NCBI RefSeq assembly: GCF_041248615.1
Contig: NZ_CP158426.1
Direction: 5' to 3' (one strand)
DNA length: 64,000 bases
From: Escherichia coli
GTDB lineage: Bacteria; Pseudomonadota; Gammaproteobacteria; Enterobacterales; Enterobacteriaceae
Below are positions 36,001-39,000 of this stretch, one piece after another (the first letter of the stretch is position 1; each line of letters starts with the position of its first letter). Position numbers: made by a program.

Positions 36001-39000
36001 GATAGGACAGGATGCAGTTGACGATAGAACTCATCTTCAATCTGCTCAATAGAGTTGACGCCATACAAGCTCACTTTTAGAAATTTGAACTCTGAATGTT
36101 TCTGCCTATATTCTTCAAGAACTCGTTCAATGAACCAAGTTTTACCTGATCCCCAAGCACCTTTAAGCATAATGGCGTATTGAGGTTCAGTTTTAAGGCT
36201 AAGGTAATATTCTAGATAGTCTTTGATGTACGTATTGTGCATTTTTAGTCCATTTTGATAAAATACATAAACATAGATGGTAAGTAGAGCCAAAGGCCAA
36301 CTATGGAAAACTCAATCGGTAGTGTACATTGTAAGGTTATTATTGGTAAATATTATAGGAATACCCATAATCTAACAAAATTCAGATTATCCGTTGCAAA
36401 TTAGTCTGCCATTCGCTAATTGACGAAAGATAGCACAAGAAACGTTCGCTTCTGGCACAAAGCGGACGATCACTTATAAAAATGACCGCCCACCTTACGC
36501 CTTATTTCACTCGTTGCCCAAACTAGCCCCCATTAGAATGAATCCTCCTAGGGGCAACGTTTCTTAATGCAGCCAGCTGTCATCTTCCCACACTTTCTGC
36601 ATAATTTTCATTACTTGTTTTCTTTCTTCGTCCAGTTGCAGTCCGGTTAGTTCCACACCGTTAGAGCTACCTTTGCGGATACGAATTACCGTTTTGGAAT
36701 ACAGGGGGCGCAGATTGCGGTAAAGCTCGGATTCAAGGGCGTCCAGGGTAGACTGGCTAATCTTCTGCTCTTTATCGATCATTATTTCAATGCGCATAAA
36801 AGTCACCTCAGCTGATGACATCCATTGAGCGGTTGTATTCGTGGCTTCTGATTTTTGCCATGAGTTCATCAGTCAATTCAGAAACCCACTGCAGAGCCAG
36901 CCCCTTCTCTTCATCACTACACTCACTAGCCGCTACAAGCTTAAGAAAAAAATCAATGCGCTGGAGCTTCAAAGACTCCAAAAAATAGTCCTGCATCTTT
37001 CCTCCTATGACACCACACGCAATTCTGTATGTATAACCACTGTTTATATTTACAGTATATAATAATCCTACTGATGTAAAACGTTTTTTTACGCTTATCA
37101 GCCTGATATGCCTGGTATTATTAAGAGCACGAATTGTTAACCCGCGTAATTAATACAGGTTCCGCCACTGATCATCTTCCTGCAAACGTTGGTTCCGATA
37201 GAAGATACGCAGGCCTGCTCCTGACGGAATACTGCCGCCACGAAGGAGTAAATAGACCTCTTTCTCGCTGCCATCAAATCCTCTGGACTTCAGTTCATAG
37301 ACAAGCTGCTGTCGCTGATGGTCTGTAATTCGCTGTTTGTAGTCTTTACGCCGTTTCGGTTTCACCAGGCGTAACCTTGCAGCCAGTTCCCGGCGCTCTT
37401 TTTTGCTCATACTGTGCAGGTATTCGTGCAACTCCTTGTCATCCATGCGGGTGATATCCGTTCTGGTATCTCCATCAGCTGATTTGTCTTTCCCTTGTTG
37501 GTACAAATTTTCAGCAAGGGGACAGTTATTGCCACGAGTCCAAGGGGCGCAAGCGCCCTGGTCGGCTGCCGCCTCCTGAACGTCAACGGCCTTACGAACC
37601 ATTTTCCACTTCACTGCATGAGTGCAGATCTTGCCCTCTGCAATGGGTGACCAGATGCCATAAATACGAATGCCGTGATCGCCATAGGCGGTCGGCTCTT
37701 CGTTAATTTCATAAGCAGTTCTGATGAGGTGATATTTGCGGGGAACCAGTACGCCGCCCTGCTTCATGATGTAAGTGGCAAAACAACCAGCATCAGCAGC
37801 AGCCAGGATTGCATCAAGGCGCGGGTTATCCAGTACCGGCGCACCTGCTTTTTTGTCCCCCTGTTGCCTTGCCGCCTGACCAGCCAGCAATCGCAGTTCA
37901 CGGTAAGCCTGACGCCCCGGAATGCCAAAGAAGCGGAATTGCTGAACACGATGCAGAGACGCCCAGGCATTAACGTATTCAGCGTTATCACGCAGGGATT
38001 TACCCGTTTCCTTGCTGATCTCGCCAGCCAGACCACGCCCGTCAATGTTCTTACTGATGTATTTCGCGATGTAGCTTGTTGGCGTACCTTTGCGCGGGTT
38101 TATCAGCTCAGACTTAAAGCGTGGTCCCGTGTTATTCCCCAGCTCCTCGCGGTCTTCACGAATGGCAAACTTACGCAATAAAGCAGTAATGGCGCGGCGA
38201 TCTTTTTTGCGCATAAAACACAACAGGTGCCAGTGAACTGTACCGTCATGATGCGGCTCAGCCACCCGCACGCCATACCACCGCAATCCGGCTTTGTGCA
38301 TCGCCTTACGAAATGCAGCAAACATGCCGACCAGATAATCACTGCTTTGTTTTACCGTCGCATTTGTCCAGGTTGGGTTGGGCCTGCCGTTATTTAGCGT
38401 GGAATGGAAACGTGACGGACAGGTGATGGTGTAGAAAACGGCGCAGTCACCGCGCATTTCCGCGATAAGCTCCAGACCTTTAACACAGGCCATCATCTCA
38501 TTGCGGCGATGCGCAGGGTTGCTGCTGCTGGCGTTTACCACATCCTCCATGTCCAGCGTGTCGCCGTCTTCGTTCACCAGTTCATGAGAACGGAAAAACT
38601 CCAGCGACTTACGGCGCTGCTCACGTTTATGCATCACGGCTTCATAGCTGACATAGGGGGATGCTTTTTTGCTAACCAGGCAGACAGCGCGCAACTGCTC
38701 TTCCCGCCATTCGCAACGCATCTTCCATAATTTCCGATACCACCAGTCGGCGCACAACATACGCGCCAGCGAACCCGGAATGAGTTCATAGGGCACGGGT
38801 TTACGGCGGTTTCTTTTCCGGCGGAGTTGCTCAAACGCAGGTGGGATGACATCCAGACGCAGGGTTTCCGCCGCCACCCTTTCCCATGTCTTGCGGATTT
38901 CTTCTGGCTTAACGTCATCGGTGGCATACAAATCGCCACAAGCTGCATCAAGGCACATGCTCATATGCGCAGCAACAAGGGTGGACAGGCGTTTCACCTG

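Follow-up and report, generated by a model that had tools for sequence, protein, structure and literature searches.

In a 64,000-nucleotide (nt) stretch of Escherichia coli DNA (contig NZ_CP158426.1 of assembly GCF_041248615.1; this whole stretch is hereafter called the window), two small open reading frames (ORFs) at positions 36564–36996 very probably constitute an ordinary two-gene SOS induction operon of a Fels-2/186-like (Peduoviridae) prophage, with a gene for an antirepressor of 62 amino acids (aa) followed by a gene for a 77-aa homolog of DinI. Such a split, tumA/tumB-type arrangement is already known, having been described for Fels-2 and PSP3. By analogy with 186, PSP3 and Fels-2, DNA damage would derepress the operon promoter through RecA-stimulated cleavage of LexA. 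The 62-aa protein would then bind the 186-type CI repressor and stop it from binding its operators, turning the lytic promoter on, while the DinI-like protein, made from its own Shine-Dalgarno (SD) sequence and ATG, would modulate RecA filaments and hence the SOS signal. A first-pass annotation had offered three readings of this region: a natural two-gene arrangement, a tum gene inactivated by a frameshift, and a site of translational frameshifting. It is the first of these that is borne out. Alignment to 186 tum and to the Fels-2 homologs, proposed there as a check, reveals the same two-ORF layout in relatives of the prophage, and homologous phages keep separate starts and separate ribosome-binding sites.

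Gene layout and the putative SOS promoter

Both ORFs lie on the minus strand, with their outer coordinates exactly as first annotated. The tumA-like gene, which encodes the 62-aa protein, occupies 36808..36996 including its stop codon (ATG at 36996, TGA at 36810-36808), and the tumB/dinI-like gene, which encodes the 77-aa protein, occupies 36564..36797, again including the stop (ATG at 36797, stop at 36566-36564). Between the TGA of the former and the ATG of the latter lies an intergenic spacer of 10 nt (ggtgactttt, 36798..36807). Each ORF has an ATG start and a strong SD motif. For the 62-aa ORF, AGGAGG (37001..37006) is positioned 4 nt before the ATG; for the DinI-like gene, GAGGTGA (36809..36803) spans the stop codon of the 62-aa ORF and the spacer. 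The two-ORF unit lies immediately downstream of a P2 gpA-like replicase gene (37150..39564, also on the minus strand), and the order on this strand is gpA-like replicase, LexA box, 62-aa ORF, spacer, DinI-like ORF.

The first-pass annotation placed the two ORFs in different frames, which is correct (the offset is +1; 36996-36797 = 199), and its estimate of about 140 aa in total, close to the ∼146 aa of 186 Tum, agrees with the actual figures (62 + 77 = 139 aa versus 146 aa). It also described an overlap of a few codons, which is not present: the two genes are separated by the 10-nt gap, and only the maximal ORF in the DinI frame (101 aa, ATG at 36869) overlaps the 62-aa ORF, by 62 nt, through an extension that is not conserved.

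A predicted LexA box, TACTGTAAATATAAACAGTG, is found on the minus strand at 37038..37057 (core CTG-N10-CAG, 37055..37040), 59 nt ahead of the start codon of the 62-aa ORF. This is the sole exact match to TACTGT-N8-ACAGT in the window, and CTG-N10-CAG occurs at the equivalent place in Fels-2, PSP3, 186 (where it is the annotated p95/LexA site), SEN8, MLG42, Cartapus and others. Taking the annotated 186 p95 promoter as a guide, we assign to the putative SOS promoter of the window, its counterpart, a –35-like hexamer TTTACA (37075..37080, minus strand), which is kept in Fels-2, SEN8 and MLG42, and a –10-like hexamer TACTGT (37052..37057, minus strand), which follows 17 nt later and, like its 186 p95 counterpart, overlaps the beginning of the LexA box. 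A second, degenerate LexA box (GTG-N10-CAG, 37025..37040, minus strand), sharing one base with the main box, is possible from the alignment, and its ATACAG half is likewise kept in Fels-2, SEN8 and MLG42.

Homology to the two halves of Tum and relation to CI

The 77-aa protein was called DinI-like in the first-pass annotation, and Pfam supports the assignment (PF06183, 78.2 bits versus a cutoff of 24.2, E = 6e-22). The protein also matches PDB entry 1GHH, the solved structure of E. coli DinI, over residues 1-75 (E = 2.4e-5), aligns with residues 71-145 of 186 Tum at 40% identity (E = 6e-23), and is 77% identical to PSP3 TumB. Its membership in the DinI family is what suggests that it may bind RecA filaments and modulate the SOS response.

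Profile comparisons identify the 62-aa protein as a homolog of the N-terminal, antirepressor half of 186 Tum. Its family is common in Enterobacterales, with 493 matches that form 67 clusters at 50% identity. When a family profile made from an alignment of 28 members was compared to 186 Tum with hhalign, residues 3-44 of the one matched residues 3-44 of the other, with a probability of 94.9% (E = 4.5e-8). In PHROG, the 62-aa protein matches phrog_698 (6e-38), phrog_8554 (1e-8) and phrog_1993 (0.002); 186 Tum matches phrog_1993 (1e-22), phrog_8554 (1e-11) and phrog_698 (2.4e-5, residues 7-44); and PSP3 TumA belongs to phrog_1993 (3e-32). These cross-matches tie together the 62-aa protein, the N terminus of 186 Tum and PSP3 TumA, and hence provide independent support for the profile homology. 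With one ORF related to Tum 3-44 by profile and the other to Tum 71-145 by BLASTP, the earlier proposal that the pair corresponds to 186 Tum in two parts stands.

AlphaFold models the 62-aa protein as a two-helix hairpin (helices 2-23 and 28-61, pLDDT 88), with a conserved Cys in the turn of the predicted hairpin. A Foldseek search of this model against the PDB returned generic helical hairpins only, none with E<=0.001, and searches of Pfam, PADLOC and PDB sequences gave nothing meaningful for the protein. Database records sometimes name it 'levan regulatory (domain) protein', a name with no Pfam or other family evidence behind it.

From what is known of 186, PSP3 and Fels-2, the 62-aa protein would bind CI, block operator binding and be needed for SOS induction. 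Its presumed target is a 191-aa CI repressor of the 186 type, a non-cleavable kind of repressor, encoded by the same prophage (42339..42914, plus strand), which carries the Pfam domains Phage_CI_repr and Phage_CI_C and is 33% identical to 186 CI (E = 3e-36). The switch of this prophage is of the 186 type; besides CI, it comprises a CII-like gene and an Apl-sized ORF, and an integrase is present too.

Several observations weigh against this account of the operon. No alignment emerged when the 62-aa protein was compared pairwise, by BLASTP, with 186 Tum and with PSP3 TumA, so its homology to Tum rests on profiles, and the profile of its family matches PSP3 TumA only weakly (E = 0.004, probability 8.6%). 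The antirepressor role of exactly this protein is predicted by analogy. The SOS promoter was not called by a sigma-70 consensus scan at its thresholds, the hexamers being weak. Lastly, the 62-aa protein is 97-98% identical among phages whose CI repressors share only 40-56% identity with that of the window, a degree of CI divergence not expected for a strictly cognate antirepressor-repressor pair.

Taken at face value, some of these points might mean that the 62-aa ORF encodes an unrelated small accessory protein induced by SOS, that something else is responsible for prophage induction, and that the DinI-like gene alone is related to Tum. The absence of pairwise BLAST similarity to Tum or TumA would fit, as would the lack of a Pfam or PADLOC family and the scarcely changed sequence of the protein in phages with very different CI repressors, which is odd for a specific antirepressor. 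We nonetheless consider this explanation improbable. The profile and PHROG matches link the protein to the N terminus of 186 Tum in the same register, and position, LexA control and association with a 186-type CI are all alike. Moreover, stand-alone members of the family keep the LexA box without DinI. In PMC3121763, taken with its reference 22, the antirepressor activity of PSP3 is reported to reside in the upstream gene, and the lethal phenotype of a lexA-null mutant is Fels-2-dependent.

If the 62-aa protein is indeed an antirepressor, its specificity may be broader than that of a cognate partner. In the same CI comparisons, identity is 61-73% over the N-terminal domain but 24-42% over the C-terminal one. 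Because the 62-aa protein is nearly invariant while CI diverges, and because the N-terminal domain of CI is the better conserved one, it is conceivable, though we would not put it higher than a tentative suggestion, that the protein is a broad-spectrum, trans-acting antirepressor which recognizes the conserved N-terminal helix-turn-helix domain common to Fels-2-type CI repressors that otherwise diverge strongly, and is not private to its own repressor. Targeting of this domain would reconcile near-identity of the antirepressor with divergence of CI, and would make action across immunity types possible.

The split layout among related phages

Conservation of the layout adds to the case for an ordinary two-gene operon. 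In Fels-2, STM2728 and a DinI-family gene (STM2726.1) are annotated with an identical 10-nt spacer behind the same LexA box; nucleotide identity to the window is ∼96% over the whole unit, and there are 2 aa differences in the 62-aa protein and 1 in the DinI-like protein. Fels-2 departs from the window in its CI, which is only 41% identical, and in the third gene downstream, which is STM2726 (the position of orf97 in 186) rather than the KAP NTPase (PDC-S49) cargo gene described below. PSP3, like the window, has a LexA box after gene A followed by two separate genes, annotated as tumA ('similar to 5' end of 186 tum') and tumB ('similar to dinI and 3' end of 186 tum'). Its TumA is of the 186-like subfamily and is related to the 62-aa protein of the window at the profile level only, and its two genes share one frame, with TAG and 3 nt between them, unlike the +1 offset and 10 nt seen here. 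Lemire et al. describe tum of Fels-2 and PSP3 as split in two by a stop codon (PMC3121763). Coliphage 186 Tum (146 aa, p95 SOS operon) has the same two modules in the same order, a LexA-controlled promoter in the same position and a 186-type CI. It differs in being a single fused ORF with a linker of ∼26 aa, and its N-terminal module, too, resembles that of the window at the profile level only. The DinI module of 186 is also translated alone, from an internal GTG with an SD.

In Salmonella, STM2726-STM2727-STM2728 were handled as a single operon in an expression analysis, with STM2727 induced 5.5- to 14.8-fold by MX, a DNA-damaging mutagen (PMC2225428). Induction of SopEPhi is ascribed to Tum in reviews (PMC9827884). 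One SopEPhi-encoded protein is 90% identical to the 62-aa protein of the window. A full-text literature search on the names TumA and TumB found no papers. Comparable pairings exist in the Gifsy dinI-gfoA/gftA and PY54/N15 dinI-antA operons, which are LexA-controlled and join a DinI homolog to a small antirepressor as in the window, although their gene order is reversed, with dinI first. To our knowledge, the antirepressors of these operons (lambdoid or N15-like) are unrelated in sequence to that of the window.

Of 5426 complete E. coli genomes, 1124 carry the locus, and the best 8 E. coli records annotate it as DinI-like family protein, hypothetical protein and replication endonuclease. In a sample of 80 loci from IMG/VR, the junction between the two ORFs is of equal length and free of indels in every case, and base-for-base identical to the window in 17. 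All 80 carry a 99%-identical DinI gene, and hence the sample informs junction invariance and not diversity, for which we relied on GenBank phages. Among these, the spacer measures 3 nt in PSP3, RCIP0057 and SI22; 10 nt, as in the window, in Fels-2, Kp4846-2, Cartapus and ST15-OXA48phi14.1; 11 nt in SEN8 and ST437-OXA245phi4.1; 12 nt in MLG42; and 13 nt in ST13-OXA48phi12.1. All three frame relations (offsets 0, +1 and +2) are seen in the diverse phages, as are the stops TAG, TGA and TAA, and a purine-rich SD precedes the DinI ATG in every one compared. Spacing of 3-13 nt with a constant SD suggests that initiation of the DinI gene is translationally coupled but independent.

Both ORFs show a strong third-codon-position substitution bias overall and, by this measure, are under purifying selection. 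In the last 21 codons of the 62-aa ORF, substitutions number 11/11/40 at its own codon positions 1/2/3. Upstream of its ATG, the DinI frame is open for 25, 22, 14, 4 or 1 codons among relatives. The 24-codon extension of the DinI frame is thus not conserved, and the stretch concerned evolves in the phase of the 62-aa ORF.

These data bear on the idea of a frameshift-inactivated tum, in which a once single 146-aa gene was broken by an indel and the pieces are decaying pseudogene fragments. One could cite in its favor the 139-aa sum and the module order, both of which agree with 186 Tum, as well as the different frames of the two pieces. However, no fused relative exists in the subfamily: in none of the 67 clusters of the 62-aa family is an N-terminal match paired with a DinI-length extension. 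Members are mostly ∼52-77 aa, and the longer matches are upstream start over-calls or unrelated. The strong SD and ATG of both ORFs, the third-position bias in each, the invariance of the junction in all IMG/VR loci, the presence of the locus in so many E. coli genomes and the retention of the split across genera, with varied spacers and frames, likewise speak against a broken gene. With no close relative fused and both ORFs apparently under purifying selection, we regard inactivation by frameshift as extremely improbable.

The modules are fused in 186-like phages, namely 186, MHG75, EtG and ST147-VIM1phi7.1. The fused ORF retains an AAGGAG-type SD and a GTG at the DinI module, for which the 186 record annotates a separate 76-aa product. 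Because the fused form keeps this internal ribosome-binding site and start, we infer that gene fusion in the 186 lineage fits better than a split in the window prophage, another point against a frameshift-inactivated gene.

Programmed recoding can be weighed on the same data. Here, ribosomes shifting by +1 at or close to the AGC-UGA stop of the 62-aa ORF would yield a Tum-like fusion beside the two separate products. It is true that, in the window, the 25 codons before the ATG of the DinI frame are free of stops and that this frame, +1 relative to the first ORF, runs past the stop region of the latter. However, the real 77-aa gene does not overlap the 62-aa ORF, and the open upstream extension is not conserved and bears substitutions phased to the codons of the 62-aa ORF. 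Reading of the sequence yielded no recognizable slippery motif and no –1 heptamer, and re-pairing from AGC to GCU would be poor. The event needed also differs from phage to phage: readthrough at offset 0 in PSP3 and MLG42, +1 in the window, and –1 in SEN8 and ST437phi4.1. Given such varied spacers, frames and stops, no single recoding event could serve all relatives. Nor does the junction offer a conserved structure, its hairpin being non-significant (z = –0.9) and absent in relatives. The same hairpin (36819-36802, over the first stop and the DinI SD) was tried as a candidate for translational coupling and rejected, on the basis of this z score and its absence in SEN8, MLG42 and PSP3. With no overlap and a relative frame that varies (0, +1, +2) among relatives, the suggestion of a translational frameshifting site is scarcely credible, and two independently initiated genes remain the preferred reading.

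Module autonomy, the downstream region and implications

Outside the paired layout, the 62-aa family also occurs without its partner. Three distant members (P0173, P0168 and P0147) lie alone right after gpA in P2-like elements, with no DinI gene; a LexA box precedes each by 33-39 nt, and the genes that follow are convergent ogr/delta and portal. Distant stand-alone members (P0147, P0153, P0156, P0173, P0178 and P0181; loci L098-L104) often have a Gly-rich tail at the C terminus, with LQ or FQ as its last residues, and at these loci, where the DinI gene is absent, the 3' ends of the member genes overlap the convergent ogr/delta gene. Where both modules are present, they can have different histories. 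In Kp4846-2, ST15-OXA48phi14.1 and Cartapus, the 62-aa protein has 1-2 differences from that of the window, compared to 10-12 residues for DinI, and PSP3 joins a 186-type TumA to a Fels-2-type DinI. Near-identical 62-aa proteins with differing DinI proteins, together with the PSP3 mix, indicate that the modules recombine independently and that the phages are mosaic at the gene junction.

Homology to Fels-2-like phages stops at ∼36554-36566, at or just past the stop codon of the DinI-like gene (36564-36566). Further downstream, a minus-strand gene at 34350..36293 encodes a 647-aa KAP-family P-loop NTPase (Pfam, 5e-20; PADLOC candidate defense family PDC-S49, 3e-156) and fills the slot of orf97 in 186 and of STM2726 in Fels-2. 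This slot looks like a cargo/defense hotspot. The hotspot probably includes a second cargo gene, an ORF of 384 aa (32833..33987, minus strand) flanked on one side by the KAP NTPase gene and on the other by ORFs at 29986-32780 that look, by position, like terminase/portal genes.

The non-coding spacer that follows the DinI-like gene (36380..36570, minus strand) is predicted to be highly structured (–72 kcal/mol, z = –5.8), with a 22-bp hairpin at ∼36454..36501 and an outer 10-bp inverted repeat, AAGAAACGTT/AACGTTTCTT. It is single-copy, is present in 216 E. coli genomes and is absent from the phage collection. The spacer has no U-tract, and an Rfam scan of 34000-43500 gave no matches. It is a candidate terminator or module boundary.

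Overall, the comparison backs earlier published work that sees in 186 Tum an antirepressor fused to DinI, two autonomous modules which in other prophages occur separately, in either order, or alone. In practical terms, the 62-aa 'hypothetical protein' of the best 8 E. coli records, from a locus carried by over a thousand complete genomes, may be named a TumA-type SOS antirepressor, and flagging the locus as a pseudogene or recoding site would be wrong. Beyond correct annotation, the importance of the finding is small. Should the antirepressor prove to act on the conserved domain of CI, however, one SOS signal could jointly induce different prophages, whether co-resident or incoming, of more than one immunity type.

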